Positions 2,549 to 64,000 of a stretch of 64,000 nucleotides of DNA are shown here, in pieces; the first letter of the stretch is position 1; each line of letters opens with the position of its first letter. The stretch covers positions 3,433 to 67,432 of the forward strand of contig JAIDWS010000022.1 of the NCBI GenBank assembly GCA_029059055.1, written 5' to 3'. This DNA is from Alphaproteobacteria bacterium (GTDB lineage: Bacteria > Pseudomonadota > Alphaproteobacteria > Rs-D84). The translations under genes and the position numbers were made by a program. Below the pieces are notes generated by a model. That model was not told the DNA's origin. It searched no databases and was given only the letters and a program-made list of their open reading frames with translations.

Positions 2549-2923
2549 TTAACGCGAATAATAACAATCACCCGTATATGTCCCGGATCCCGACGTATCC
2601 GAAAATGACGTGCCGGACGACAGATAACAATCTGTAATAGACGTAGCACGACCACCAAAAGTCGTGCCACCATCCGGACAATCCACACAAACACCAGAAG
2701 ATGGATACTGCCCATCCAAGCATATTTCCTGTAAGGGCGGCCGGATTGTTCCGCCACCACCGCCCGAACACGTCGTACAACAGTTATTCAATCCCCACAC
2801 CAGGCAATTTTCAGGATGGCCATCACATTGCATGTCATAAGGACAGGTCAGCGTTGCCACACCATGCGCACCGCCGCACATTATCATTGCCACCCCCCAG
2901 ACCAACATCAGTGATTTTTTCAT
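2549..2923 (-). CDS. small secreted Cys-rich protein (family member 1)
   Basis: 124 aa with a signal peptide (MKKSLMLVWGVAMIMCGGAHG) and 16 Cys. The C-terminal module CVDCPDGGTTFGGRATSITDCY...TGDCYYSR is shared with the other family members. Confidence 0.7.
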   Translation of the reverse strand: MKKSLMLVWGVAMIMCGGAHGVATLTCPYDMQCDGHPENCLVWGLNNCCTTCSGGGGGTIRPPLQEICLDGQYPSSGVCVDCPDGGTTFGGRATSITDCYLSSGTSFSDTSGSGTYTGDCYYSR

Positions 2924-3168
2924 TCAAACTTCCCTTTTGTTTATTTCATTAATGAAAAACCACCAAAAAATTTTTCAGGTGGTTGGAGGTTCGAAACTAT
3001 AAACTAGAATAGTGCTGCTTATTCGATATATTCAGCCGCCCTCCAACCCGCAATAACGGATGGAGTTTTTATCGTCACACCGGACGCTAGTTTAATGGGT
3101 TTCGACACCCACCCCGGGAACACCCCTGGGGCAAATTAAATTATATATCAATTGGGATTTATGAACAA
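2924..3168 (-). promoter_or_regulatory. promoter plus structured leader RNA, copy A
   Basis: Minus-strand promoter TTGTTC (3168-3163), 17-nt spacer, TATAAT (3145-3140). The leader has a 5' hairpin with loop GUGUU and a long-range helix ggttggagg (3047-3039) : cctccaacc (2989-2981). That helix encloses a hairpin with loop AAUAUAUCGAAUAAG. Terminator: aaccacc-loop-ggtggtt-UUUUU (about 2984-2955). Confidence 0.55.
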
Positions 3169-27045: not shown

Positions 27046-27950
27046 TACTCATAATCCCCCATAACCAACATAGAAGATTCAAAAACCGGTAAATTTAATA
27101 AACGACAATCCTTTTGCCTGAATGCCTTGGCCAATGATGCGGACATCATTTCTGCACATTTAAGCAGGGATATTGCTTCGCCATCCATATTTGCATTACA
27201 CAACAATACTGATATTAGTTTATTTTTTAATTCTGGTGTTAAATCCGAATAATCAGACAAATCCAACTTTGCCACACTATAATCCACAAATGGCCGCAAT
27301 GGTTCCATCATGTCATCAACCAAATTAAACTGATTTAATTGATTATCATGATGAATGCCAAAACATGGCAACAATCCAGATGCAACAATATTGCGCGCAA
27401 CACAACCACGCACAATGGCATATCCATAATTCAGCGCTTTGTTTATCACATTTGCATCATCACGGCGCGAAAAATCACCGAACAACAACCGCCAATAGAG
27501 TTGAGCCGCATAAGCTTCGCGATTATCGCTATCACCGCTTTGTACACGTTTTGCAATTTCGCCCAGCGCATTTTGCCTTCCCAGCGCATATAACACAGCA
27601 GATTGATTTAAAATTTTCTGTTGCACAACTGATTGCCATACGCGCTTTTTTAATGGTTCAGTGGCCGCGATTTGAATATGGGCCATTTCTGAATAGCGCG
27701 AGTTATCATGAAACGGAAAAAAAGTTCCCGACGGCAAATGCGACGCATCACAGGTCAACAAGACGACATCATTTGCCGCGAATTCTGACAAAACGTGCCC
27801 TGTTAATTGTACAAAGCCCGTTTCCAAAACAACGACCGACAAGTCCTCTATCGGAATCGTTGTTTTGGTGTCATCTGATTCATAAAATAATTGTTTTTGC
27901 TTGACTGATAATTTACACGGTTTCGTTAGTTGAAGGATTCGCCACCCCAT
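27045..27950 (-). CDS. cas1: CRISPR-associated endonuclease Cas1 (type II)
   Basis: 301 aa: NKALNYGYAIVRGCVARNIVASGLLPCFGIHHDNQLNQFNLVDDMMEPLRPFVD. Confidence 0.95.
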   Translation of the reverse strand: MGWRILQLTKPCKLSVKQKQLFYESDDTKTTIPIEDLSVVVLETGFVQLTGHVLSEFAANDVVLLTCDASHLPSGTFFPFHDNSRYSEMAHIQIAATEPLKKRVWQSVVQQKILNQSAVLYALGRQNALGEIAKRVQSGDSDNREAYAAQLYWRLLFGDFSRRDDANVINKALNYGYAIVRGCVARNIVASGLLPCFGIHHDNQLNQFNLVDDMMEPLRPFVDYSVAKLDLSDYSDLTPELKNKLISVLLCNANMDGEAISLLKCAEMMSASLAKAFRQKDCRLLNLPVFESSMLVMGDYE

Positions 27951-30900
27951 TTTTATTCCTTTTAGGTTGCTTCCTTCCTTTTCTTTTTTCTGATTGCGGC
28001 TTTATGGCACAGACCGGCGTCCGATGTTCACATTTTACTTCATTCACATCGCCCAACACGCCAATATGAAATTTTTGTAAGTTTTTGAATGTATTTATGT
28101 CTATTTTTTTCTGACTATCGCATTTTTCCAATTCCACCAATGTTTTTATTTTCTTTTTTTCTTCCACTCCGCCACGTTTTTGTTTTTTCTGTGCTTCTAT
28201 TTCAAAAATAATACCATTTTCACTGATTGCAATTAATTTTCCGTTTTTAATCTCAGAAACCTTATACAAAGTATTTTCAACTTTAATAATATCATCAGGC
28301 TCAAACGTATCTGTTCGAACAGAAAATCTTGCAGAATTATCTAAACTTCTAATTACTAATTGAGATTGGTTAGAGGCCGCCGTACACTTTACGACATACC
28401 CCTCATATTCTATCTCCGATTTTGTCGTAATCTTGATATAATCATCCTTGTGCAATGTCATAACGAATTCATAAGTATCGTCAATGGCAACGGGCTTTTC
28501 CGCCTTGGCTGGTTGGGGATAGAATATATCTTGGCGATTTTTATCAACTGTATCCGCAACAAATATTGGAACAACCACATACTTGCCGTCTTTTTTAAAG
28601 ATATCCATGCGGAACATATTGTCTTTATCCGCACGTCCACGTGGCAAAACCATACTACCTTTACCAGATTTTGGCGAATTTATAGTATCTTTATGCACCG
28701 AACCCGTTGCCTTGCCACGTACCGTACGCGAAACAAATACATCATCAACGGACTGCAAGACATCCGCCCGAAAACCATCCCATGGCTCTCTAACATTCTG
28801 CTTCAAGTTGTCCCACCAGGGCCGCCCTTTCTCATTACGTTTATTTTCAAACAAACCGGATACTGTTGATAAATATTGCACCATTCCTGGCGTTGCACAG
28901 GCGATAACAATGGCGTCCTGGGCATGATGCCGGTCTGATTCTGTACGCGATTTTGTCAGCCCCCACTGACCGCGTAAATAATGTGTCAATGCCCCGGCAC
29001 GCACATCAACCCGCAAATCTGGGAACGCGGTATTTAAGACTTGTTTGACATATCGTGCCGCATATGCATTGTCATGCTCATTGCGTTCACGAAAATCCTC
29101 TTCTGACGCATCAAAGTCTTTATTCAACAGATTATGCACTTTGCGGGTTCCCAACCCCACTTTGAGTGCAGATACACGCCCAGCAAAATCATCCCAACGT
29201 GCGGTATTGCCAAAATATTCATACGGTGTTTTATTGCCTTTGGCCTGATTTTCTGTATATTTGACCAAAACCTTGTTCATATATGAATTATCCAACGATC
29301 GTGAATACGGTAAAATATGGTCAATTTCGTAACTATCCAGATGGGCCAAATCAATCGCTTCGCCAGAATACATGCACTTTCCATCTTGATCACGATACAG
29401 TTTATATTTTACTACATCTTTGGCTGTGGCCTTGCGTCCCGTCAACGCTTCATACTCTGTCCGGGCACTATCATTTTTATCGCGATTTTCATTTTGTTGG
29501 CGTTCGATTTTTTTACGATCGTCAAAGTTATTCTTTAATTCGCGCCCTACTTCTAAATTCACACGGTCCGGGGTGCCGTATTTACGAACCAGCGCATTAT
29601 ACACCTTGCGAAACTGGGCAACTGTACGATTAACAACCGGGACACGCGTCCATTCTGCAATCTCTGCGACACATCCATTGTCTGCCTTTACTTCGCCAGA
29701 TATTTTGCTTTTAAAATCATATCCGGCCGCCGCACACGCCTTGTCATACGTCAGTCCACGCATCATTTCCGGCACAATTTTATACAAGGCCTGTAAAGAC
29801 AGATTTATAAACTTTGACGTAGATAGCGTCTTTAATTCGGCAATATGCTTTTCAGGCACCTTTTTTCGACGCAATTCTTTTTCGATTGCCGCATCATCTT
29901 TCTGGGTTGCAATGACCTTCATAATCCGGTCCAGCATTTGAACATCCGACATATCGGCACTATCCAAGATTTTCTTTAATTTATGCCATCCGGCCATGGA
30001 ATAAAAGGTTTGCGTTTCTTCCTTTACACCGCGAAAAGCGACATCGTGCCCTTTCCATATTTTATTACGCAGTGTCTTGTACTTAACAGTTTGGGTCTTG
30101 CGCAATAAATCCAGAATTGCAGCACGTTCTTCATCATTCACAGAACGCACGGCGCCATCGATAACCATTTTCATGTTATTTATACGGGTCAACGCCACAA
30201 ACAATTCTGCCGTCGGGGATTCTTTTGGCGCACGCAGACAATTGGGTTCCAATGTACATCCGCCGACCATTTTGCCAACCGACTGTATTGGACGTACACG
30301 AAATGCAATTTTCTTATATTGTTCGCGCAATTCTGGGGTAAGCAGTCCGTATTTCTGCTGGGCATCAAAAATCAAATCAAGTTCCCGTTCTATTTCTTCC
30401 CGCGGAATTGAGTTATCGTATACGCCATCACCATTGCGATATTTTTTCGCGCCATCGCAATTGTTTTTGTAAATCATCTGGGCCATCGTCTTATATTCAC
30501 CCATCCGTTCACGATTCCGCGCAATGGAAACCAGTACCTTTCCGGTTTCTTTATCATTTTCTTCTGCCGATTTTCGCATAGATTTATATCCGCGATGCTT
30601 TGCCATATGAATTAACACACGCGACAGTTCGCGTGATGACAATTTACGATAAAACACATCTTCTGCGCGCAACGCCCAAACATCAACGTCATCGGCCCCA
30701 ACAACAATATTTTGATTACCAAGTCCACTATTTTCCAATAATGTTCGAATTTCTTTCATACGTAACGCTTTTCTGCGCAGCGCACGACGAATTGACCGCT
30801 TCTCGCGACGCGGCGCCGCCAATGAAGAACCATCCTTAGGATTTTCCGCGACACTAAAAATACGTACACCTGACTGTTGAATTTTTCCCACAGTGGCACG

Positions 30901-30990
30901 TCCCATCTCTGGATTATTATTTTCTTTCTCTATATCAACAACCGCCCAACCGATACTGGCAATTCCCAAGTCAAAACCGAATACACGCAT
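27913..30990 (-). CDS. cas9: Cas9, compact type II-C (1025 aa)
   Basis: RuvC-I MRVFGFDLGIASIGWAVV, Arg-rich bridge helix RREKRSIRRALRRKALRMKEIR, HNH YEIDHILPYSRSLDNSYMNKVLVKYTENQAKGNKTPYEY, and RuvC-III HHAQDAIVIA. There is no csn2 or cas4 in the locus. Confidence 0.97.
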   Translation of the reverse strand: MRVFGFDLGIASIGWAVVDIEKENNNPEMGRATVGKIQQSGVRIFSVAENPKDGSSLAAPRREKRSIRRALRRKALRMKEIRTLLENSGLGNQNIVVGADDVDVWALRAEDVFYRKLSSRELSRVLIHMAKHRGYKSMRKSAEENDKETGKVLVSIARNRERMGEYKTMAQMIYKNNCDGAKKYRNGDGVYDNSIPREEIERELDLIFDAQQKYGLLTPELREQYKKIAFRVRPIQSVGKMVGGCTLEPNCLRAPKESPTAELFVALTRINNMKMVIDGAVRSVNDEERAAILDLLRKTQTVKYKTLRNKIWKGHDVAFRGVKEETQTFYSMAGWHKLKKILDSADMSDVQMLDRIMKVIATQKDDAAIEKELRRKKVPEKHIAELKTLSTSKFINLSLQALYKIVPEMMRGLTYDKACAAAGYDFKSKISGEVKADNGCVAEIAEWTRVPVVNRTVAQFRKVYNALVRKYGTPDRVNLEVGRELKNNFDDRKKIERQQNENRDKNDSARTEYEALTGRKATAKDVVKYKLYRDQDGKCMYSGEAIDLAHLDSYEIDHILPYSRSLDNSYMNKVLVKYTENQAKGNKTPYEYFGNTARWDDFAGRVSALKVGLGTRKVHNLLNKDFDASEEDFRERNEHDNAYAARYVKQVLNTAFPDLRVDVRAGALTHYLRGQWGLTKSRTESDRHHAQDAIVIACATPGMVQYLSTVSGLFENKRNEKGRPWWDNLKQNVREPWDGFRADVLQSVDDVFVSRTVRGKATGSVHKDTINSPKSGKGSMVLPRGRADKDNMFRMDIFKKDGKYVVVPIFVADTVDKNRQDIFYPQPAKAEKPVAIDDTYEFVMTLHKDDYIKITTKSEIEYEGYVVKCTAASNQSQLVIRSLDNSARFSVRTDTFEPDDIIKVENTLYKVSEIKNGKLIAISENGIIFEIEAQKKQKRGGVEEKKKIKTLVELEKCDSQKKIDINTFKNLQKFHIGVLGDVNEVKCEHRTPVCAIKPQSEKRKGRKQPKRNKNGVANPSTNETV

Positions 30991-34567: not shown

Positions 34568-35266
34568 ATGAGCTTTGTGAAAAAATATTGTCAAAAACGG
34601 CGCCAGAAACGTATGCTGCGCAAATTTTATAGAAATGGCAATCATGTGTACCTGGTCACCGAACAGGGAACCCGCATAACCAATCCGTCCCGGGTTCCGG
34701 GCCTGTATGTCAATGCAACCGGCACCAACAACACCATTACAATTGAATTGCCAATCAAGATTGACAAGAAGCTGACAATTGCCCTGACGGACAATGCAAC
34801 AATCAGCATTGGTCATCATGCACATTTTTCCGGCCCCAGCCGTATCAGCAAAAGCCGCGGCAGCGCCGAAAACCACGTCCATATCGGCAATTACTGTGGT
34901 TTTGGCGAATGCATCATTGATATTACAGACCATGGCAATATTGATATTGGCAACAACGGGATGTTTTCATGGGGCATATATATCAAGACCGACGACACGC
35001 ATCCTGTGTTTGATGCGGCGACCGGCGCCGTATTGAACCGGTCCACCGGAATATCCATTGGCAACCATGTTTGGATTGGGATGTACGCCACCATTTTAAA
35101 GAATTCGATTATTGCCGACAATTCCATCGTCGGCGCACACAGCGTTGTGGCCGGAAAATTTACGGAACCAAACACGGCCCTGGCGGGCAATCCCGCCAGG
35201 GTGGTAAAAACCGGCATCAATTGGTCCGGAAAATCAATCGAAGATTATTGCGCACAGAACCCGTAA
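34568..35266 (+). CDS. hexapeptide-repeat (LbH) acyl/acetyltransferase
   Basis: IGNHVWIGMYATILKNSIIADNSIVGAHSVVAGKFTEPNTALAGNPARVV. Confidence 0.8.
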   Translation: MSFVKKYCQKRRQKRMLRKFYRNGNHVYLVTEQGTRITNPSRVPGLYVNATGTNNTITIELPIKIDKKLTIALTDNATISIGHHAHFSGPSRISKSRGSAENHVHIGNYCGFGECIIDITDHGNIDIGNNGMFSWGIYIKTDDTHPVFDAATGAVLNRSTGISIGNHVWIGMYATILKNSIIADNSIVGAHSVVAGKFTEPNTALAGNPARVVKTGINWSGKSIEDYCAQNP

Positions 35267-39305: not shown

Positions 39306-39439
39306 GTTAAAATCCTGTTGTGTTTATTTCCCCATTATTTTATACTTTTTATTGAACCCACAGGGATGTGGGTTCGGGACTTAGAAAATCCCAATCATCG
39401 CGGTGGCATGCCATCGTAATCCGACCAAAATGCTGCGAT

Positions 39440-39622
39440 TTTGCGGCATATGTTACGTCCCCGACGGGTATATATCCGGCCGGGAAGCTGTTGGTTATAC
39501 AACAAGATGCCCCGGGCATCCAAAGGCCAACAGGGTCTTTCGATGATTGATTTTTCTAACTTCCCGACCACCAAGAACACTGGTGGTTTTTGTTTCATAC
39601 AAAACAAAAGGGATGAAAAATC
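39440..39622 (+). promoter_or_regulatory. structured leader RNA, diverged copy E
   Basis: Outer helix cgggaag (39481-39487) : cttcccg (39560-39566). Terminator accacca-agaacac-tggtggt-TTTT (39567-39591). The SD context aacaaaaggga is shared with copy A. The inner hairpin differs (tgttg-GUUAUA-caaca). Confidence 0.4.
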
Positions 39623-40210
39623 ATGAAAAAAACCGTCTTTATCATCGCCATGTTCATAATGGCAATCGGCTGCGCCGGGGCCAGCCATGCAGCGAATGAA
39701 ATCATCGGCACCACCTGTACAGAATCAGCATGGCAAAGTTGTCTGACCAATTATGGCGTGACATATGATTCCAGCTGTTCAAATTCCGCATGCAGCCTGT
39801 GTAACAATCGGTCATCGTCGGCGGGGCTGACGAATTCATTCGGCATTGTTACCAGCACAACATACAGATACGAAACCAATTGCCCATCATCATATGGCGG
39901 CACCGCCACGTGCAGCTGTAAACAAACCAGTTCGTCATACAAATGTGCATCGGGTTATTACGGCACAGCGACATCCAGCACCAGTGGTTGCACCGCATGC
40001 CCATCAAACGCGACATGTGCCGGCGGTAATAATTCCACATTTTCCTGTAACAAGGGATATTACAAAGACGGGTCATCGTGTTCCGCATGCCCCGGCATTG
40101 GTACATCCGCCGCCGGCGCGACATCGATATCATCATGTTACATCCCGGCCGGCACGACGTATTCCGACAGCACGGGTGGTGGGGAATACACCGCCAATTG
40201 TCCATATTAA
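39623..40210 (+). CDS. secreted Cys-rich protein (family member 3)
   Basis: Signal peptide MKKTVFIIAMFIMAIGCAGASHA. Repeats: CASGYYGTATSSTSGCTACPSNATCAGGNNSTFSCNKGYYKDGSSCSACPGIGTSAAGATSISSCY...TANCPY. Confidence 0.72.
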   Translation: MKKTVFIIAMFIMAIGCAGASHAANEIIGTTCTESAWQSCLTNYGVTYDSSCSNSACSLCNNRSSSAGLTNSFGIVTSTTYRYETNCPSSYGGTATCSCKQTSSSYKCASGYYGTATSSTSGCTACPSNATCAGGNNSTFSCNKGYYKDGSSCSACPGIGTSAAGATSISSCYIPAGTTYSDSTGGGEYTANCPY

Positions 40211-42147: not shown

Positions 42148-42164
42148 TGGGATGAAACCATACA

Positions 42165-42194
42165 CGCGCCCGCGATTGCGGGCGCTGTTTTTTT
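42165..42194 (+). terminator. ssb terminator
   Basis: gcgcccgcgattgcgggcgc followed by tgttttttt. Confidence 0.7.
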
Positions 42195-42200
42195 ATTACA

Positions 42201-42476
42201 TTGCAATCATACAATTTTCACGATATAATACGCATGTCGCCGGGTGTTCCGGCGATGGGGTGTGATGACCCGTGTGATAGCGTCGGAATACTGTCATATG
42301 GCGCGCAAAATGGCGCCTGTTTTAATATTTCGATGAAAAGAAAACTCCTGAAACCCATTGGGTCAGGAGGGTTGCGAATATATTGAATAAGCACACAATT
42401 CTATCAATTGTCATCAACCTCCTGACCACCACGAAAATGGTGGTTTTTTGTTTAACAAAGCATCAGGAGATTGAAC
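42201..42476 (+). promoter_or_regulatory. promoter plus structured leader RNA, copy B
   Basis: TTGCAA (42201-06), 17 nt, TATAAT (42224-29). 5' hairpin cgccgg-GUGUU-ccggcg (42238-54). Hairpin ctcctga...tcaggag (42345-69). Outer helix 42361-70 : 42418-27. Inner hairpin loop GAAUAUAUUGAAUAA. Terminator 42425-49. SD caTCAGGAGa (42461-70). Confidence 0.6.
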
Positions 42477-42551
42477 ATGAAACAAAAATTAACGGCGATA
42501 TTGACATTGCCGATATTATTGGCATTGCCAACCGACCGCGGATACGCCGCC
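42415..42551. repeat. inverted repeat, left arm (leader 3' part plus signal-peptide codons)
   Basis: 137 bp, the reverse complement of 44058-44194, with 4 mismatches that I can see. Confidence 0.85.
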
Positions 42552-43274
42552 GGTGACGTTGGCACAACAATAAAATGCAGCAACGATGCCAGATGTACAA
42601 ACTATGTCGCGTCCACATACAGTTATGGGGGGACAAAAGAACCCACAACCACACTATGCGATACCAATACATATGGATATTGTTGGCTCTGGGGCGACCT
42701 GTGCGTATCAAACGGTTTCGGTAATGATACACCGGGTTACTGCACCCAACGCTGTGCAGAACGGGGTTACGATATCTTGGTCTATGACATGAATAACAAT
42801 TACGAATGGGGATGCGCCTGTGTTCGGGATACATCATTCCAAGAATGGCAAAAATACAGCACCAGACGTATGCAAAAATATACCCCCACATACCGCAACG
42901 ACATGACCGCTGGGAAATGCACCGTCACCGCCACCCCGACCGGCGAATATCGATGCGCGGCCGGATATTATGGCACCGCAACATCAGAATCCGCCTGTCT
43001 CGCATGTCCCACCAACGCCACATGCAGCGGGGGAACCACATTTATGTGTAATGTCGGCTATTACAGAAATGCCGCCAAAACCGGATGCACCAAATGTCCA
43101 GACAGCAAAACCGCCGGCTTGGGATGGGACGCCAATGGAAATGGGGTTGCGGCCGTGGGCGGCGGTGATGATATCAGCTGGTGCGCCATTGCATCTGGGA
43201 CCGTGTTACACGATAACACCGGAACGTTCATTGTGGACCCCGACAATGAACTGACGGATGGGTGCGAATATTAA
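42477..43274 (+). CDS. secreted Cys-rich protein (family member 4)
   Basis: ATG at 42477, 6 nt after the SD; the track's TTG at 42471 is less likely. Signal peptide MKQKLTAILTLPILLALPTDRGYAA. Repeats: YRCAAGYYGTATSESACLACPTNATCSGGTTFMCNVGYYRNAAKTGCTKCP...LTDGCEY. Confidence 0.75.
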   Translation: MKQKLTAILTLPILLALPTDRGYAAGDVGTTIKCSNDARCTNYVASTYSYGGTKEPTTTLCDTNTYGYCWLWGDLCVSNGFGNDTPGYCTQRCAERGYDILVYDMNNNYEWGCACVRDTSFQEWQKYSTRRMQKYTPTYRNDMTAGKCTVTATPTGEYRCAAGYYGTATSESACLACPTNATCSGGTTFMCNVGYYRNAAKTGCTKCPDSKTAGLGWDANGNGVAAVGGGDDISWCAIASGTVLHDNTGTFIVDPDNELTDGCEY

Positions 43275-43313: not shown

Positions 43314-44132
43314 TTAATAAGTTTGATATTCGCATCCGTCATTCGCGTCATCGGTAATGACAAATGTGCCGGTGGCGTCATGCAGCACCGTTCCCGCGGG
43401 AATACTGCACCATGACAATTCGTCCACACCACCCACGGCGGCCACGCCATTTCCATTGGCATCCCATCCCAGACCGCCCGTTTTGCTGTCTGGACATTTG
43501 GTGCATCCGGTTTTGGTGCTGTTGATATAAAATCCGTCCTTGCATGAAAATGTGGAATTATTTCCACCACGACACGTCGCGTTTAACGGGCATACGGTGC
43601 ATCCGGTGCGGTCCGATGTGGCGGTGCCATAATATCCGGCCGCACATCGATAATTATCGGTGGTGGTGGCGGTGACGGTGCATCCTGCGCCGGATGAACC
43701 GCTGGAATATGTTGGTTTATATTGCCGCATGTACCCACTGTTGCCGGCAACGGCGCGCCATTCTTGGAATGACGCGGATTGAAAACAGGCACACCCCCAT
43801 TCGTAATTGTTATTCATATCATAGACCATAACATCATAACCCGCATTTGCGCAGTTTTGGCTGCACACGTTATATGCGTCGTGGCCGGAACCATTTCCCA
43901 GACACACCCCATCCCACAACCAACAATATCCACTGCCACCAGCGGTACATGGCGCCGTTGTGGTACTCTTGTCACCAAATTTGTGATAAGATGCGCCGAC
44001 GTATTTTGTACAACTGTCCGCATACGCACATTTTTCCACGATATTCACTTCCAAACTGGCGGCGTATCCGCGGCCGGTCGGCAATGCCAATAATATTGGC
44101 AATGTCAGTATCGCCGTTAATTTTTGTTTCAT
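43314..44132 (-). CDS. secreted Cys-rich protein (family member 5)
   Basis: ATG at 44132. Its signal peptide differs from member 4 at a single residue (PTG vs PTD). Repeats: YRCAAGYYGTATSDRTGCTVCPLNATCRGGNNSTFSCKDGFYINSTKTGCTKCP...ANDGCEYQTY. Confidence 0.75.
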   Translation of the reverse strand: MKQKLTAILTLPILLALPTGRGYAASLEVNIVEKCAYADSCTKYVGASYHKFGDKSTTTAPCTAGGSGYCWLWDGVCLGNGSGHDAYNVCSQNCANAGYDVMVYDMNNNYEWGCACFQSASFQEWRAVAGNSGYMRQYKPTYSSGSSGAGCTVTATTTDNYRCAAGYYGTATSDRTGCTVCPLNATCRGGNNSTFSCKDGFYINSTKTGCTKCPDSKTGGLGWDANGNGVAAVGGVDELSWCSIPAGTVLHDATGTFVITDDANDGCEYQTY

Positions 44133-44194
44133 GTTCAATCTCCTGATGCTTTGTTAAACAAAAAACCACCATTTTCGTGGTGGTCAGGAGGTTG
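44058..44194. repeat. inverted repeat, right arm
   Basis: Reverse complement of 42415-42551. Confidence 0.85.
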
Positions 44195-44408
44195 AGAACA
44201 ATTAATGGAATTGCACTGCTTATTGAATATTCAGCAGTCCTCCTGACCCAAAAACGGGTATGTTCAGGAGTCTTCGCCGGCACATATCAAAAACGGCGCC
44301 AATCGCGCGCCATCATGGTATTCCGACGCCATTAAAGAGGTTCTCACGCCCCATCACCGGAACCCCCGGTGACATAATAATTATATGCCGACGGTGCAGT
44401 TAATGCAA
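44133..44408 (-). promoter_or_regulatory. promoter plus structured leader RNA, copy C
   Basis: Minus strand: TTGCAT (44408-03), 17 nt, TATAAT (44385-80). 5' hairpin tcaccgg-GGGUU-ccggtga. Inner hairpin actgc-UGAAUAUUCAAUAA-gcagt. Its 3' third is near-identical to copy B. Confidence 0.6.
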
Positions 44409-44449: not shown

Positions 44450-47400
44450 TCAGAATCTGTACGAACCGGATATCTTAATCTGATGCAACTGCATTTCCGT
44501 ATTATATTGATACCGGTAATCCAGACCAACCTGGACCCCGCTGGCCGACAGGATTTCCACCCCGCCCCCTGCGTTGGCCCACAACGGGTCCAAATCAATG
44601 TCATATGTGGTATACCCGCTGGCCGGTGCGAATTTGTATTTCGCGTGGTTCGGCGCACCCAGCAAATCGTATTCCACACCCACCGACAGATACGGGCGAA
44701 TCTGGAACCACGGCCCCGGATAGATACGCTTTTGCGCAATCAACGAATACCCCGGTGTCAACATCATGTATGCATCGGATTCCAATTTCATGTAATCGCT
44801 GCCGGCGGCCTTTTCGGTGACAGAAAATCCCGAATTGACGCCCACACGTGCATACAGATTGCCCACCAGATACTGGTTCAACCAATCATGCAGCAATCCC
44901 CATTCCGACGTCAATGCGAACGCGGTACCACTGCCATCGATGGACGCGACATAATTCTGTTCGCGCGACACATCCAACAGGTGCAAATCCAGATATGCGT
45001 TTCCATACAGACGCATCTTGGTCCCCAATGTCTTCATCAAATATCCGCCCAGGCCGATGTCTGTATCCGCCACGTCAACCTTGACATGTCCGGCGATATG
45101 CTGGCCGGGTTTATAGCCCAATTCCATGCTGTCGGAATTGTCGGACGACATGTGGGACACGCGGCCGGTCACACCCAAAATCAGTGTCGGATTTTCCTGC
45201 CAATCAAAACCACCCGATACGCTGAACCGGTCGCCACTGACACGTTTGCCATCGGATACGCGCTGATTAAACATGCCGAAATCCGCATCCAACCATGCCT
45301 TTTTCAAATTACGGTGACGATTCCAGATGAATTCGTCGAACATACGATCTTCGAAATTGCGGAAATTGGTATGTTCGTTCATCACGATATGACCCGCAAT
45401 TTGTTCGATTTCACGCGGCTGGAACAAACGGCTGAACCGGGCCAATCCACGACCATCGCGCGATGTGTTGTAATATTCCATGCGCTGATACAGTTCCTGG
45501 GCCATTTCCGCCATGTTTGTGTTTTTAAAGATTAACGGAATCGCTTCAATCGGTGTCCGGTTAAAGAATCCGGTCTGGGCCAATTTACCCGCAATCAATT
45601 TGTCCAATGCCCCCGCAGAAACATGTTCACCGGTGGTGTGGTCGCCTTCGCGGTCAACGATGGGCTGAATCTTAAAGACTTCGACCGGGCCACCGAAACG
45701 CGGGTCAAACACGATGTAAATGCTGTCCGGCACGCCGTCGCCATCGGTATCACGGACCGACAGAAACGCCGGCAAATCCAACCCGTCAACGCTGCCGTTA
45801 TTACCGGGCTTAATCGCGTCCAGATAATCAAAGCACATTGAACCGTCCGCATTACAGAACTTTACGAACAAATTGCGCATCTTTAACGCCAATTCTTCCA
45901 GGCCGCCGTCCGCATGCACCAACCAAATGGCATCGCCCTGGTCAACCATGTCAAAGATATCAATGCCAATTTGCGGATTGGTCAATGCCCCACCGTTAAT
46001 CGACGTACCCAAATCTGTAACATTGGAAATGAATTTCCCATTGACAGAAATCAAGGGTTCCGCCCCAACCGGATTGGTAATCTGGCCCAATGTGTTGTCA
46101 TTGTTCAGACTGACCGATGCCCAATAATTGCGGGTGGTCGCCGCCGGCGGCATGATGGCCGCGTGCAACAAACTGTCGGTGTCAAACGTATATGCACCAC
46201 CAACGGTCATTTCTTTTAATCCCACAAATCCAACGCCACCGGATACATCACCATCCACGTTAACCGTCAACCAATTGTTGTTGATTGTGCTGTCTTTGCC
46301 CTGGGCATAGACACGCAGATGTGATGCCAAAATACTGCCGTGGACATCCAAATCACTGGTGTTCAGGGTCATGCTGCCGGATTTTTGCTGAATCCCGTTT
46401 GTGATAACGTTTGATGCCGTAATGGTGTACGCATCCCCAATAACATTCGCATCACCCGCAGACGCCGATGTCATATTCTGTAACAAACGTCCCGCCAATG
46501 TAAACGCCCCGGTCGAATTCATACCCTGGCCCAGCAAAGTTGCCGAACCACCGGTCAATGTAAAGCTGGTGACGTTGGCCAAATCCGCCCCCGAATCCAG
46601 CGTCATTGTGCCCGCCATCCCGTTCACAACATCCAATGTCATGCCGTTTTGTGCGGTCAATGTCAATGTACCCGCATTCGTGACGTTGGCGGCGGTAATC
46701 GTTTTGGCCGAAATATCGGCGTCTGCGACGCTGACAACAATGATGTCGCCGGCAATCGTCGCCGCATCTGCGATGCGGTAATCCGCCGATAAGCCATTCG
46801 CCCGGAATGCCCCGTCAACGACCAAATTCTGGGCCGTGACGACCGAATTGTTACGCGTAATATTCAATACGCCACCGGTACCGCCAATCCCACTTTGGAC
46901 CAAATCGCCCGCCACGGTAATATTATTGGTCGCGGTAATCGTATTAACGTTCAAATTGGCATAACCACCGGTTACAGACAAATTATTCAGATTCCACGAC
47001 GTCCCCGTCACATCCAACGCGCCCGCCGTGGTCGACACCGCCGCAGACTGCATCGTGCCACCAGACATGGTAAATGCCCCGCTGTTGGTGATGCTGCCGG
47101 TATTGATGGGCCCGGAATTCTTGGCCGTGATGGCAACACTGCTGGTGTTTGTAATATCTTGGGTTGTGATGCTGGCCCCGTCAATGGTCAATGTCCCGGA
47201 ATTATCAATATCATTGGCCGATGTCACCGCACCGTTGGCATTGATATCCAATGTTCCCTGGGCATTTTTAACCAGCCCCGCCAACGTCACCGCATCACGC
47301 GAATTCAACGTCAATTTGTGTCCCGACGATATCGACATACCGCCGGCAATATTCATAGAACCACCGTTTCCGGTTGTGGCCAATGTGACATTGGTCGGCC

Positions 47401-49675
47401 CCGTGATAACCATACCCGACGTCGGGTTTGTTCCGTCAAACCAGATACCGCCCGCGATATCAATGGCGTTTGTATTTGCATCCGACGCATCAATCGTGGC
47501 ATTTACCGACGCGGATGACCCGTGCAAGATAAATTTGCCATTGCCGCCCAGACTGCCGACATCAATGTCCGCCACCGCCAGGTCGATTACCCCGCCGTCG
47601 CGCGCCGTCAACGCACCGGTTACATTCAAATTGGTGGCCAGATTACCGCCAAAAATCAATGCACCACGATTCGCCGCGGTGACATTGCCACCCACGTCCA
47701 GCGTTTGCGCATCAAAGCTGATGGTGCGCGCCATATCGTTTTCAATTGCGGAAATATTGCCGCCAATGTTAATTGCGTCGGTGGCCGTCATGACAAAGGT
47801 CTGGGGGCCGCCCGCCGCAATATTCACATTACCCGCGTCCAGAACCGGTGTCGCCGCCGCCGTAACATCACCCGCGATGTTTGCCGTGCCGGTAATGGCG
47901 ATTTCATGCGTGGCGTCGCCGATGTTCAAATCACCGCCGGTTACATTCAAATTATTGGTCACAGATACCGACCCGGTCAACGCAGTCAAATCCACCACGC
48001 CGCCCGATACATTCAAACCGCCCAGCGTTACCGCCCCGCCGGTCTGGTCAGACCCACGGATGGTCATGGTACCGTCGGCATTTGTAACCACGCCGTCAAT
48101 TTTAATCTGGCGCGATTCAATTTTCATTGTGCCACTGTTGGTGACGGTGCCGGTAATTGAAATATCCCCCGGCGTATTGGTATACGCATCAATCGCCATG
48201 TTCCCGACGTTCGACACCGTATTCAAGGCAATTTTTTGCCCGTTGATGTTCATGGTGGCCGTCGTGCTTTCATTCGCGACCGCACCGCCGACCGTTATGG
48301 TCCCATCGGCAATTAAATTCGTGGTTCCATCCCCACGGGCGGTCACACCCTGGGCCACATTAATGGTACCGGCACCGGCGTTGGCGGCGGTAATATTTAA
48401 ACTGGTACCGGAATTGGTAATGGAATTGGCTGTAATCGCCTGGGCGGCCAACATCATATCCGCATTGGCGTTTGTATCCCCGTTGATAATATCCGTCGTC
48501 AGGTTTAATTCCCCATTGCGCACGCGCACAATAAACGAATTCAAATTATTTGTAAACAATGCCAACCAGTTGTCATCCGACAAATTGGTCCCGAATCGCA
48601 ATGTACCGGTATCCAATTCAAACGTATTGGTATTCGGCATTGTGGTCAAATCGAACCCATTTTCCAGATATGTTTCACCGGTAACGTTAATGGCCAAAAT
48701 CCCCTTGTTCACCAAGGATGCGTCATTATGCGCCGAATCGGTCCCGGCCACGTTCAGGGACGTACCACTGATTTTCATTGTGCCGCCATCCGAATCGTTT
48801 TTCATGGTCCCGGACACCGTAATGGCACCGGCACTGGTGATTGTCATGGACGCGTTACCATTGGCATCAATCCCAGAATTTTCCACACTACCCGTCACAT
48901 CAATTCCACCGGTGGTTGTGGTGATATTCATACGTCCCGCCTGGTTTTGAATACTGCCCTGGGCGATGATATTGCCGGCGGTGATATCGGTATTTCCGGT
49001 ATGCGCGACAACAAAGTTCCCAGACGCGTCTGTATCCGCCAGATAGCTGCCATTTGTATATTGGCCCATAATCATTTGACCGGCGGCATTGATGGTAACG
49101 TCGCCCTGGTCATTGGCCAAAGTTCCCATTTTAATCGTATTGGCGTTAATGGCCAACGTACCGGCATTGGTCACACTGCCGGTGCCGGCGGTCAAGACGT
49201 CCCCGGTCCATGTTCCGACCGTTAACGCATCAATATTATTTAATGTCAATGACCCCTGGTTATCAATACTGCCCAGGGCGGCATTAATCGCGGCCACAGA
49301 CGTATTGTTGGGCAATTCCAGGGTCAACGCGCGACCATTTAAAACGCGCAATACGCCGCCAACCGACAGCGCGCCTTCGCTTTGCAGTGTAAATGACAGA
49401 TTGGTATTCGTCGCAATCAGCAATTGCCCGGTATCGGCACCAATATAATCTTGGCCGGCAATCATATCACCGGTAACAGAAATACCGCCGGTCCCCACAA
49501 CCACACCCGCGGGGGTTTGGTTATAACTGTTCCCCTGGATAATCACACTGTCGGTGTAATTAATGCCCGCCTGGTCCGGAATTAATCCGTCCGCCCCGGG
49601 TTCCAAATAAACAGGCGCCGCAACTGCACCAACCGGCAACAGGCAGCAAACAAAAGAAATTAGCTTTTTTATCAT
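44450..49675 (-). CDS. very large autotransporter (type Va) adhesin-like protein
   Basis: 1741 aa from ATG 49675. Signal peptide MIKKLISFVCCLLPVGAVAAP. A Cys-free passenger of about 1400 aa carries degenerate beta-helix-type repeats (G-T-L/I-x-I/V-N...). The C-terminal beta-barrel domain ends in ...KISGSYRF. Confidence 0.85.
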   Translation of the reverse strand: MIKKLISFVCCLLPVGAVAAPVYLEPGADGLIPDQAGINYTDSVIIQGNSYNQTPAGVVVGTGGISVTGDMIAGQDYIGADTGQLLIATNTNLSFTLQSEGALSVGGVLRVLNGRALTLELPNNTSVAAINAALGSIDNQGSLTLNNIDALTVGTWTGDVLTAGTGSVTNAGTLAINANTIKMGTLANDQGDVTINAAGQMIMGQYTNGSYLADTDASGNFVVAHTGNTDITAGNIIAQGSIQNQAGRMNITTTTGGIDVTGSVENSGIDANGNASMTITSAGAITVSGTMKNDSDGGTMKISGTSLNVAGTDSAHNDASLVNKGILAINVTGETYLENGFDLTTMPNTNTFELDTGTLRFGTNLSDDNWLALFTNNLNSFIVRVRNGELNLTTDIINGDTNANADMMLAAQAITANSITNSGTSLNITAANAGAGTINVAQGVTARGDGTTNLIADGTITVGGAVANESTTATMNINGQKIALNTVSNVGNMAIDAYTNTPGDISITGTVTNSGTMKIESRQIKIDGVVTNADGTMTIRGSDQTGGAVTLGGLNVSGGVVDLTALTGSVSVTNNLNVTGGDLNIGDATHEIAITGTANIAGDVTAAATPVLDAGNVNIAAGGPQTFVMTATDAINIGGNISAIENDMARTISFDAQTLDVGGNVTAANRGALIFGGNLATNLNVTGALTARDGGVIDLAVADIDVGSLGGNGKFILHGSSASVNATIDASDANTNAIDIAGGIWFDGTNPTSGMVITGPTNVTLATTGNGGSMNIAGGMSISSGHKLTLNSRDAVTLAGLVKNAQGTLDINANGAVTSANDIDNSGTLTIDGASITTQDITNTSSVAITAKNSGPINTGSITNSGAFTMSGGTMQSAAVSTTAGALDVTGTSWNLNNLSVTGGYANLNVNTITATNNITVAGDLVQSGIGGTGGVLNITRNNSVVTAQNLVVDGAFRANGLSADYRIADAATIAGDIIVVSVADADISAKTITAANVTNAGTLTLTAQNGMTLDVVNGMAGTMTLDSGADLANVTSFTLTGGSATLLGQGMNSTGAFTLAGRLLQNMTSASAGDANVIGDAYTITASNVITNGIQQKSGSMTLNTSDLDVHGSILASHLRVYAQGKDSTINNNWLTVNVDGDVSGGVGFVGLKEMTVGGAYTFDTDSLLHAAIMPPAATTRNYWASVSLNNDNTLGQITNPVGAEPLISVNGKFISNVTDLGTSINGGALTNPQIGIDIFDMVDQGDAIWLVHADGGLEELALKMRNLFVKFCNADGSMCFDYLDAIKPGNNGSVDGLDLPAFLSVRDTDGDGVPDSIYIVFDPRFGGPVEVFKIQPIVDREGDHTTGEHVSAGALDKLIAGKLAQTGFFNRTPIEAIPLIFKNTNMAEMAQELYQRMEYYNTSRDGRGLARFSRLFQPREIEQIAGHIVMNEHTNFRNFEDRMFDEFIWNRHRNLKKAWLDADFGMFNQRVSDGKRVSGDRFSVSGGFDWQENPTLILGVTGRVSHMSSDNSDSMELGYKPGQHIAGHVKVDVADTDIGLGGYLMKTLGTKMRLYGNAYLDLHLLDVSREQNYVASIDGSGTAFALTSEWGLLHDWLNQYLVGNLYARVGVNSGFSVTEKAAGSDYMKLESDAYMMLTPGYSLIAQKRIYPGPWFQIRPYLSVGVEYDLLGAPNHAKYKFAPASGYTTYDIDLDPLWANAGGGVEILSASGVQVGLDYRYQYNTEMQLHQIKISGSYRF

Positions 49676-49773
49676 ATTTTTTTGTTTAATTCCGATTACA
49701 ATTGTGCTTACATTATGGCACATAATTTGTTTGTTAGCCAAGCAAAAAGTAATCGCAAGGTGTAAAAATATAG

Positions 49774-63497: not shown

Positions 63498-63872
63498 TTA
63501 CGCCCCCGCGTCCGCATAAGCGGCCGGCACGCGCACCAAATCATCGGTCAGCCGGGCGATTATTTTTACCTGGTCCGGCGTCATCTTGTACAGATTCTGC
63601 ATAATGTGCATCAGTTTCGGGTCCTGGGTATATTCAGAATCGGCTTCTTGTAAAAATTGTCCCATGGGAATTCCGAGACATTTACACATATCATACAGAC
63701 GTGATACTGCCATGCGGTTGCCCGCGCATTCATATTTTTGCACCTGTTGAAACGAACATCCCATCGCCGATGCCAAATCTTTCTGCGACAGACCGTGCCG
63801 CGCACGATGCAATGCGATTAATCGTCCCAAACGCTTATCAAAATCGGTTAAAACCGTGCTTTTTCCTGACAT
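63498..63872 (-). CDS. XRE-family helix-turn-helix transcriptional regulator
   Basis: Internal ATG at 63872 gives MSGKSTVLTDFDKRLGRLIALHRARHGLSQKDLASAMGCSFQQVQKYECAGNRMAVSRLYDMC. The track's longer start would translate the leader RNA. Its stop abuts the polA stop. Confidence 0.8.
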   Translation of the reverse strand: MSGKSTVLTDFDKRLGRLIALHRARHGLSQKDLASAMGCSFQQVQKYECAGNRMAVSRLYDMCKCLGIPMGQFLQEADSEYTQDPKLMHIMQNLYKMTPDQVKIIARLTDDLVRVPAAYADAGA

Positions 63873-64000
63873 GCCGCCCCCATATTTATACATATAAAAA
63901 TCCGCCATATACATATAAGGCGGGTTGGAGTTGAGAACAACTATAAAACAAATTGCCTGGCTTATTGGATATTCACCAGACTCCAACCCAACACAGGTCA
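63873..64000 (-). promoter_or_regulatory. structured leader RNA, copy D (5' part beyond the window)
   Basis: Minus-strand sense ...gggttggagt-ctgg-UGAAUAUCCAAUAAG-ccag-...-actccaaccc, then terminator ccgcc-ttatatgtatat-ggcgg-AUUUUU. It is collinear with copy A. Confidence 0.5.

Follow-up and report, generated by a model that had tools for sequence, protein, structure and literature searches.

The 64-kb window analyzed here (the whole stretch of 64,000 nucleotides from contig JAIDWS010000022.1, GenBank assembly GCA_029059055.1) carries five copies of a structured leader RNA that lies between a promoter and the start codon of a downstream gene and ends in an intrinsic terminator. Two sets of helices covary in this leader, and the two sets cannot form together. 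Based on these observations, we propose that the leader is probably a cis-acting, bistable 5' element, a transcription attenuator with riboswitch-like logic, common to a large regulon in gut Alphaproteobacteria of the order Rs-D84. On comparative sequence evidence, it appears to constitute a new family of attenuator- or riboswitch-like leader RNAs, with switching and a ligand as candidate properties. The family is unusual in showing covariation for both conformers, in the apparently very large number of copies that a minimal genome carries, and in the secretome-type character of its regulon. The window is part of a 75-kb metagenome contig (ENA ERZ14208469, NODE_31) from a metagenome-assembled genome (MAG) labeled "Alphaproteobacteria bacterium." Candidatus Enterousia, a member of the order Rs-D84 (whose genomes measure ~0.75 to 1 Mb), and the order as a whole are uncultured, genome-reduced inhabitants of the human and animal gut whose biology is essentially unknown (PMC12306168).

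Five copies of a promoter-leader-terminator unit

At copy C, a sigma-70-type promoter, the leader, a terminator with a U-tract, a Shine-Dalgarno (SD) sequence, and the start codon of a gene for a signal-peptide protein follow one another (Table 1). The preliminary description of this locus had proposed just such an attenuator architecture, with alternative helices between promoter and terminator, and a consensus scan together with the sequence itself bears out the promoter TTGCAA-17-TATAAT, the terminator, and the ATG at 42477. Transcription presumably starts at about 42235-42236. The leader folds at -84.9 kcal/mol (z = -4.7), a value equaled by none of 200 shuffled sequences, so its structure is not a product of chance.

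A covariance model, R1, was built from copies C, D, and A and from three leaders of orthologous genes in other metagenomes (L002, L006, and L008). When the window was searched with R1, exactly five copies were found, the same five that had been noticed earlier; C, D, and A are training sequences of the model, and the independent detections are E and B only. Each copy ends in an intrinsic terminator ~20 to 30 nt short of the ribosome-binding site of a co-oriented gene. Copy B proved to begin near 39352 and not at 39440, about 90 nucleotides (nt) further upstream, and the copy letters in the earlier text were out of step with its own list of coordinates. The leader of copy A, in which helix P3 (described below) has shrunk to a 4-bp hairpin, precedes a gene for a 124-amino-acid (aa) Cys-rich protein (2549-2923, minus strand). 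Copy B, whose architecture is common to its relatives L024:2478-2714 and L014:1659-1910, precedes a 195-aa Cys-rich gene (39623-40210, plus strand). Copy E, with the terminator CGCC...GGCG, lies upstream of an XRE-type helix-turn-helix (HTH) gene (63498-63872, minus strand).

Two short motifs of the leader are enriched in the window. For the inner-loop motif AAUA-N2-6-AAUAMG there are 7 matches where 1.6 would be expected, 4 of them within leaders; for the terminator pattern ACCAC...GTGGTTTT there are 7 where 0.04 would be expected. Of the latter matches, five fall on copies A to D (C twice); the remaining pair comes from one unrelated palindromic site, at 34869-34903. The hairpin at this site, ACCACGTCC...GGACGTGGTTTT, is symmetric and can be read from either strand. 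It has the ACCAC/GTGGT stem ends of the leader terminators but is otherwise unrelated to them, and it resembles a bidirectional terminator.

Copies C and D are in opposite orientation, facing inward with their two genes between them. They are near-identical, with 4 mismatches, over a stretch of ~135 nt (42418-42550 on the plus strand versus 44050-44190 on the minus strand) that comprises the 3' leader half together with the SD and the region coding for the signal peptide; the 5' leader halves differ, and the proteins are 60% identical overall. This near-identity suggests local gene conversion or an extra constraint on the stretch.

Covariation in the long-range fold, state I

The fold that we call state I comprises the helices P1, P2a, P2b, P3 and its tip, P4, and the terminator. 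We assessed it in a MAFFT alignment of 57 full-length copies (A4) and in a second MAFFT alignment of 133 copies (A6). The latter was also used for the counts on P4, P5, and P7 in place of the covariance-model alignment (A5), in which the columns of helices outside the model are misregistered. In A4, 95.4% of state I cells are in standard pairs, compared with 34 to 54% when the partners are slid, and both partners change in 25 of the 56 pairs. Such double changes account for 331 cells, against 85 ± 8 in shuffled alignments and at most 54 in slid ones; none of 500 shuffles reached the observed values. P1 and P2a hold on all 133 copies of A6, with 90.7% of cells paired and 538 changed on both sides. 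These results agree with the earlier proposal that selection acts on RNA structure.

The long-range helix P2a/P2b was found by running RNAalifold on six sequences. P2a pairs the consensus GUnnUCAACCUC, just 5' of the terminator, with the strand directly 3' of the P1 hairpin. Its central pairs in A6 are GC 49, AU 40, and CG 36 at pair 56:314 and AU 46, GC 32, UA 31, and CG 18 at another. P2b joins a 6-nt block 5' of GCGUCGG to a block 3' of CACAAUU. The hairpin P4 pairs segment 1 (seg1) with segment 2 (seg2), and in our model it would serve as the anti-antiterminator of state I. P3 is sequence-conserved in the main subtype of the leader and is a mini-hairpin or absent in short subtypes, whereas the terminator hairpin and its U-tract are conserved in all subtypes. 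P6, which is compatible with both states, is a hairpin predicted in 133 of 133 copies, with the loop motif in 130 of them.

The helices named in the preliminary description (42236-42256, 42345-42351:42363-42369, 42361-42370:42418-42427, and 42373-42393) lie where it had placed them. Its structural model was incomplete, lacking the pairings 42257-42269:42410-42421 and 42275-42280:42401-42406 and the hairpins at 42281-42335 and 42395-42411; it thus missed the best-supported helices, P2a and P2b, and with them the two-state logic proposed here.

Several further ideas about the loops were rejected. If the P1 loop GUGUU formed a pseudoknot with the conserved RCAC 3' of P6, changes at loop position 2 should be compensated; this position varies freely and without compensation. 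The palindromic P6 loop of copy D (UGAAUAUUCA) might have served as a DNA operator or a kissing loop; the palindrome is not conserved, and only the two AAUA repeats are. A mini-open reading frame in the P6 loop ends in UAA in some copies, is not conserved, and is replaced in type-2 loops by AAUACG.

Two more conserved stretches stand out. The GC-rich P3 tip, GGCGCGC-loop-GCGCC, is followed by a conserved UGUUUUA, and the consensus scan flags the combination as terminator-like at 42300-42323 and at 44292-44314 (minus strand). It is kept in main-type copies and absent in short types, and it could be an early terminator within the leader. Between the terminator and the SD (42446-42476 in the window, with equivalents in most copies at loci L002 to L052), the sequence is conserved as UUUUUCAUU-N-GAAAAA(C), in which the U-tract can pair with the downstream A-run. 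This stretch yields spurious conserved "MVFHFEK..." open reading frames (ORFs) that start at a GTG within the terminator stem.

A second, mutually exclusive fold, state II

In state II, seg2 pairs with segment 3 (seg3) to form P5, and a small hairpin, P7, appears. The preliminary description had noted that the P5 strands stay complementary when their sequence is replaced, and we find this in at least five sequence versions, including those listed in Table 1. Copy B of the window pairs at 9 of 10 P5 positions (GGCCGGGAAG:CUUCCCGACC). Moreover, seg1, seg2, and seg3 vary in concert between subtypes, the short and B types included. At L013:45, a C-to-A change disrupts a P2a pair and retains a P5 pair, indicating that P5 is not a by-product of P2a. 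P7 takes further versions in divergent copies, in which it reads GCAU/AUGC, GAUA/UAUC, ACUGU/ACAGY (ACAGU or ACAGC), or ACUAC/GUAGU, and its pair 288:307 in A6 is AU in 76 copies and UA in 54, with a single exception.

State II draws on nucleotides that state I uses. Seg2 cannot pair with seg1 and seg3 simultaneously. The P7 loop is the 3' strand of P2b (42401-42406), and P7 ends in the 2 nt with which the 3' strand of P2a begins (A6 columns 308 and 310). Seg3 overlaps with P2a in CCUC and with the terminator stem in GACC, so that GACC at 42424-42427 is both the 3' end of seg3 and the base of the terminator stem. Because of the nucleotides that P4 and P2a/P2b share with P5 and P7, the two states are mutually exclusive. 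We also considered whether P7 and P2b could coexist as an H-type pseudoknot; with 0 to 1 nt to cross a helix of 6 to 7 bp, this appears sterically impossible.

When P2a is open, the GGGG of its 5' strand can pair locally with CCC at 42269-42271. The 5' side of what looks like an internal loop in P2 (CCCGU/CCUCU) mimics the 3' end of P2a, and such local pairing would explain why this side is conserved.

Table 1. Positions in the window of the leader features at copy C, of the other four copies, and the subtype versions of the switching segments
Feature	Position	Strand	Evidence or remark
Promoter of copy C, sigma-70-type TTGCAA-17-TATAAT	42201-42229	+	Consensus scan, 10/12 consensus matches
Leader RNA of copy C, presumed start to end of terminator U-tract	42234-42453	+	Covariance-model match, 221 bits
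P1, 8-bp 5'-end hairpin, loop GUGUU (consensus GNRUU)	42236-42256	+	99% paired; 7/8 pairs change on both sides
P2a 5' strand, GGGGU-G-UGAUGAC (consensus GGGGU-G-UGAnnAC)	42257-42269	+	Partner 42410-42421
P2b 5' strand, UGAUAG, hypervariable	42275-42280	+	Partner 42401-42406; 5/6 pairs change on both sides, 4-5 pair types each
P3, long hairpin CGUCGGAAUA:UAUUUCGAUG, conserved internal loop, GC-rich tip GGCGC/GCGCC at 42300-42317	42281-42335	+	
P4, hairpin of seg1 CUCCUGA (42345-42351) and seg2 UCAGGAG (42363-42369)	42345-42369	+	94% paired
Seg2 GGUCAGGAGG, 5' strand of P5, pairs with seg3 CCUCCUGACC (42418-42427) in state II	42361-42370	+	98% paired
P6, hairpin with 3- to 6-bp covarying stem and 12- to 15-nt loop R-AAUA-N3-5-AAUA-(A/C), both states	42373-42393	+	
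P7, hairpin ACAAU(U):(A)AUUGU, state II only	42395-42411	+	96.8% paired on 133 copies
Shared 3' segment: P2a 3' strand GUCAUCAACCUC (42410-42421) and seg3 CCUCCUGACC (42418-42427)	42410-42427	+	
Intrinsic terminator of copy C, GACCACCA-cgaaaa-TGGTGGTT + U6	42424-42449	+	Consensus scan
Terminator hairpin GACCACCA-loop-UGGUGGUU with U-tract	42424-42451	+	96.5% paired, some changes on both sides
SD CAGGAG and ATG (at 42477) of copy C gene	42464-42479	+	SD complementary to CUCCUG of seg1 and seg3
Gene 3' of copy C, 265-aa Cys-rich protein with N-terminal signal peptide	42477-43274	+	
Copy A, short subtype, seg2/seg3 GGUUGGAGG/CCUCCAACC	2950-3134	-	Covariance model, 134 bits
Copy B, divergent long subtype, seg2/seg3 GGCCGGGAAG/CUUCCCGACC, ACCACC terminator	39352-39596	+	Covariance model, 19.6 bits, E = 2.5e-4
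Copy D, upstream of paralogous 272-aa gene 43314-44132 (-)	44156-44375	-	Covariance model, 204 bits
Copy E, 3' half only (window end), seg2/seg3 GGGUUGGAGU/ACUCCAACCC	63892-64000	-	Covariance model, 26 bits, E = 3e-6
Main subtype			seg1 CUCCUGA, seg2 GGUCAGGAGG, seg3 CCUCCUGACC
Short subtype			seg1 CUCCAAC, seg2 GGUUGGAGG, seg3 CCUCCAACC
Copy E and L013:45			seg2 GGUUGGAGU, seg3 ACUCCAACC
B-type relative L024:2478			seg1 CUCCCG, seg2 GGUCGGGGGG, seg3 CUCCCCGACC
L023:1711			seg2 GGUUGGGG, seg3 CCCCAACC

Energy ranking of the two states and the SD sequence

Folding energies computed with ViennaRNA rank the two states clearly. State I lies within 1 kcal/mol of the minimum free energy (MFE) in 34 of 57 copies and, in the full-length RNA, has a median advantage of 11.5 kcal/mol over state II. 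In RNA truncated 5' of the terminator loop, it is still favored, by a median of 5.8 kcal/mol. State I, with a complete terminator, is the thermodynamic ground state.

When the SD region is included (42236 to 42476), copy C has an MFE fold in which seg3 pairs with the SD. In two of the copies, the SD had earlier been described as a repeat of the tcaggag segment of the leader. This is true of the main subtype, where 29 of 44 copies have CAGGAG and AGGAG nearly always has a C before it, and not of the short type, where it occurs in 0 of 85 copies; these have UUGGAG, with no matching extension of the SD. The idea that the SD mimics seg2 and covaries with it thus fails in the short subtype.

Distribution and novelty of the family

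In other metagenomes, orthologous genes also have homologous leaders in front of them. A covariance model recovers the leader in related genomes and metagenomes well beyond the window. We scanned GTDB species representatives for an exact pattern, two conserved blocks of the 5' half of the leader, and obtained 44 loci from 25 MAGs. All of these come from the animal or human gut, and all but one are labeled Alphaproteobacteria, Proteobacteria, or Candidatus Enterousia. The remaining MAG is labeled Muribaculaceae; its two leader-bearing contigs, L030 (CAZJGX010000087.1) and L040 (CAZJGX010000028.1), are probably misbinned, because all other matches are alphaproteobacterial. Searched with R1, loci L002 to L052 gave 75 matches at E ≤ 0.01, a few of the weakest being reverse-strand or chance matches, and two or three copies are present on several of the 8-kb pieces. 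When metagenome contigs were scanned with a short-subtype pattern, at least 120 stretches were returned; among the matches listed, R1 confirmed 80 of 80 loci (L053 to L132, 85 R1 matches), long human-gut contigs included.

Overall, the family was retrieved at least ~190 times, from 25 gut MAGs (Candidatus Enterousia/order Rs-D84) and many gut metagenome contigs, and as far as seen it is restricted to this one lineage. A scan of viral contigs for the main-type P5 pattern gave no matches and thus no link to phages. The window holds 5 copies in 64 kb, and density is higher in the fetched loci, which were chosen for holding a copy. By extrapolation, a genome of ~0.9 Mb likely carries dozens of copies.

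The leader had been called a class outside the known families, and a search of Rfam 15 agrees. At the gathering threshold, its 4227 covariance models found only 3 tRNAs in the whole window. In E-value mode, nothing credible was found at 42150-42520, where the best match on the leader strand was SymR, at 19.6 bits against a threshold of 61, and the top match overall for copy C was SprD, at 21.9 bits against 100, on the opposite strand. Locus L008 gave no Rfam match, and locus L076, which holds five copies, gave none on the copies. Full-text literature searches on Enterousia and Rs-D84 yielded no account of an RNA element. A survey of human microbiomes reported 3161 unnamed candidate RNAs (Fremin & Bhatt 2021, PMC8040213); signature strings of the leader are absent from ~190 of its alignments, and the leader may already be listed, without a name, among its candidates.

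Genes downstream of the leader

Sigma-70-type -35 and -10 boxes lie 5' of nearly all 57 aligned copies, usually after the terminator of the upstream gene, with a predicted transcript start 5 to 7 nt 3' of the -10 box. More than 80% of copies are directly upstream of a co-oriented ORF, whose SD and start codon follow ~15 to 60 nt 3' of the leader terminator. Main-type leaders precede genes for signal-peptide proteins of 120 to 270 aa, most of them Cys-rich and without a Pfam family. Short-type leaders precede genes for signal-peptide proteins (one with Listeria-Bacteroides repeats), XRE-type HTH proteins of ~75 to 125 aa, and other small proteins. A Pfam search of the Cys-rich proteins found no family, and a PDB similarity search with a Cys-rich protein found only a weak resemblance to the Cys-rich region of EphA2 (E = 0.02). 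Across the 25 species-level MAGs, the downstream proteins are 41 to 54% identical or have diverged beyond recognition.

Some loci depart from the usual arrangement. Two tandem units are present at L093. At L004:2915-3000, and also at L005, an ortholog of a Cys-rich gene has upstream of it only the promoter TTGCGC-17-TATAAT and an ACCACC...GGUGGUUUUU terminator hairpin ~30 nt further on. All other parts of the leader are lacking, which makes this a minimal or decayed version. At L113:8190-8245 (minus strand), the leader terminator and the gene are separated by an inserted perfect palindrome of high GC content, GTAGGGGCG...CGCCCCTAC, which looks like a small mobile palindromic element.

Other features of the window

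A 1763-aa ORF without a Pfam match (44450-49741, minus strand) adjoins copy D. L002 and L003 have a 1747-aa counterpart at this position, which makes the ORF conserved and syntenic in related contigs. Between 26000 and 30000, a low-GC island (0.38 to 0.42, versus ~0.50 elsewhere) with a 1025-aa ORF (27913-30990, minus strand) may have been acquired horizontally.

Proposed mechanism and points against it

The layout of the leader is that of an attenuator: a terminator lies between promoter and start codon, a covarying antiterminator (P5) overlaps it, and P4 and P2a/P2b compete with that antiterminator. That these folds control termination in vivo is our inference, as are the direction in which the leader would switch and the existence and nature of an effector. 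In this model, transcription would start at the strong sigma-70-type promoter, and the RNA would then take either of the two folds. In state I, the 5' strand GGGGUGUGAnnAC and the variable block would pair with the 3' strand ahead of the terminator (P2a and P2b), seg1 would hold seg2 in P4, and the terminator and U-tract would form, halting transcription ~25 nt before the ribosome-binding site. In state II, P5 would capture GACC, the 4 nt with which the terminator stem begins, P7 would displace P2b and part of P2a, and the GGGG would pair locally. Polymerase would then read through into the gene, and in the main subtype seg3 would also be kept off the SD.

The default outcome is probably termination. 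Since state I is the ground state, an effector would be expected either to promote state II or to interfere with P2 or P4. A small molecule, an RNA-binding protein, or another RNA could play this part. Recognition might take place at the invariant P6 loop (AAUA..AAUA), at the P1 loop, or at the conserved strands of the junction.

Several observations weigh against the attenuator model. The antiterminator and the terminator stem overlap by only 4 nt, and state I is so strongly favored that switching would need a sizeable input. As seg1, seg2, and seg3 are sequence-conserved within subtypes, the covariation of P4 and P5 amounts mostly to a few subtype-level events. The downstream genes, for secreted or surface proteins and small HTH proteins, point to no metabolite. 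Finally, some copies stand apart from genes. At L076:155-1004, four complete promoter-leader-terminator units follow one another in tandem, ~30 to 85 nt apart and with no ORF between them, before a single 84-aa gene. An orphan copy, L068:5689-5862, has no gene for ~450 nt. Among the 85 short-type copies with enough downstream sequence, 14 lack an adjacent ORF by a strict criterion, although one of them, at L113, has a gene ~80 nt downstream that the criterion missed. Homologs of the 84-aa gene at L076, recognizable by a "KYPDYKTG" motif, are leader-associated at L022 too.

Alternative explanations

The tandem array, the orphan copy, and the several other copies without an adjacent ORF are as much in line with a multicopy family of small RNA (sRNA) genes as with stacked attenuators. 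On this account, the promoter-to-terminator RNA of 160 to 240 nt would act in trans, through its CU-rich, anti-SD-like segments or as a protein sponge, and the downstream genes would be transcribed by leakage through the terminator. Every unit does have its own promoter and strong terminator, stable sRNAs are typically built with a 5' hairpin and a 3' terminator, and CUCCU, the complement of the SD, occurs in both seg1 and seg3. However, these CU-rich segments are base-paired in both states, and the large majority of copies sit so close to a co-oriented ORF that no space is left for a separate promoter. The extension of the main-type SD to match the leader argues in addition for coupling in cis. 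We consider it unlikely that the family consists of sRNA genes in this sense, and we note that sRNA and cis-attenuator roles could coexist.

A slightly less likely alternative is a structured 5' untranslated region (UTR) that does not switch, serving as a stability or translation module or as a processive antitermination site of the nut or put type. State I would then be the sole relevant fold, and the complementarity of P5 and P7 would be incidental. In keeping with this, state I is the MFE structure in most copies and far more stable than state II, and few events underlie the P5 covariation. P1 followed by GAUGGGGUGUGA, a conserved 5' hairpin and then a linear element, loosely recalls nut-type sites; the Rfam scan found no match to an antitermination element on the leader, in a library that may or may not include the nut, put, and EAR families. 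Three results run counter to a single fold: P7 covaries cleanly though it is incompatible with P2b and P2a; seg3 tracks seg2 through at least five sequence versions, with one change that spares P5 and breaks P2a; and the mimicry of the P2a 3' end by CCCGU/CCUCU is as predicted by the alternative local pairing.

It is very improbable that the leader is a promoter/5'-UTR cassette copied at the DNA level with paralogous genes, by duplication, gene conversion, or recombination, with an RNA structure devoid of function. Copies C and D do suggest local gene conversion in the stretch they share while their mature proteins differ, but hundreds of compensatory double substitutions preserve the helices, the genes downstream belong to unrelated families (Cys-rich, Listeria-Bacteroides-repeat, and HTH regulators), and the leader is conserved across 25 species-level MAGs despite the divergence of the downstream proteins. 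Least credible of all is ribosome-mediated attenuation, with a short leader ORF controlling the terminator: although many copies start with ATG, TTG, or GTG and copy C has an open frame from 42201 to 42386, the leaders are noncoding, with every forward frame interrupted by stops in 118 of 133 copies, a first triplet that is often ACG, CTG, or TCG, no 3-nt periodicity in their lengths, common indels of 1 to 2 nt, and a would-be start at +1 without an SD.

Relation to known systems

In its general plan, the leader resembles SAM-I (S-box) and lysine riboswitches, with ~200 nt between promoter and gene, occasional tandem arrangements, a multiway junction, conserved junction and loop nucleotides on covarying stems, and a long-range closing helix whose 3' strand feeds the choice between antiterminator and terminator. 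Unlike these riboswitches, it matches no Rfam family, its gene context suggests no ligand, and its antiterminator comes from one junction arm (the 3' strand of P4) and not from the closing helix alone. In addition, several of its helices are sequence-conserved, and its copies probably number in the dozens per genome. T-box leaders are likewise ~200 nt long and multicopy, with competition between terminator and antiterminator and, as proposed for the leader, stabilization by an effector and termination by default. However, the leader gives no RF00230 match even in E-value mode, its alignments show no Stem I, specifier loop, or T-box sequence, and the genes that follow it are not aminoacyl-tRNA or amino-acid genes.

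With respect to its regulon, the closest parallel is the cyclic di-GMP regulon of Clostridioides difficile, in which GEMM-I and GEMM-II riboswitches lie upstream of many genes for surface proteins, pili, and flagella. In both cases, one RNA class tags many unlinked genes for secreted or surface proteins for a single signal, a putative one in the case of the leader, but the leader matches neither GEMM-I nor GEMM-II models and is unrelated in architecture. Multicopy sRNAs with CU-rich anti-SD motifs include LhrC1-5 of Listeria, whose targets include surface proteins, and the alphaproteobacterial alpha-r14 or "cuckoo" RNAs. The leader shares with them many paralogous copies, some of them in tandem, that each carry a promoter and a terminator of their own, and CUCC motifs complementary to the SD. 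It differs in that its CU-rich segments lie inside helices, most copies are fused to a gene in cis, and it is much larger, with two covarying folds. The 5' cassettes of Mycoplasma vsp/vlp genes also place a near-identical upstream region (in copies C and D, the signal-peptide region too) before fast-diverging secreted or surface proteins. Conservation of the leader, in contrast, is explained by base pairing and spans genera and unrelated gene families, and no recombination sites or invertible segments were seen at the leader copies.

Implications

With covariation visible for both conformers, the leader offers a tractable bistable RNA for the study of cotranscriptional switching. Its natural variants, with and without P3 and with at least three versions of seg1, seg2, and seg3, would be useful in hunting for a ligand or factor, and the covariance model could be used to annotate Rs-D84 genomes and flag their regulated secretome. 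More speculatively, and with clearly less confidence than we place in the attenuator model itself, the leader may be a new RNA switch (a riboswitch, or one responsive to a protein or RNA) that gates most of the secretome and the small HTH regulators from dozens of copies per ~0.9-Mb genome in response to one signal, with the terminated form doubling as an abundant small RNA. If the model is true, an element found about once per 6 to 13 kb would define a regulon of secreted or surface proteins and small regulators, and this regulon would probably be the interface of these bacteria with their host or with partner cells.

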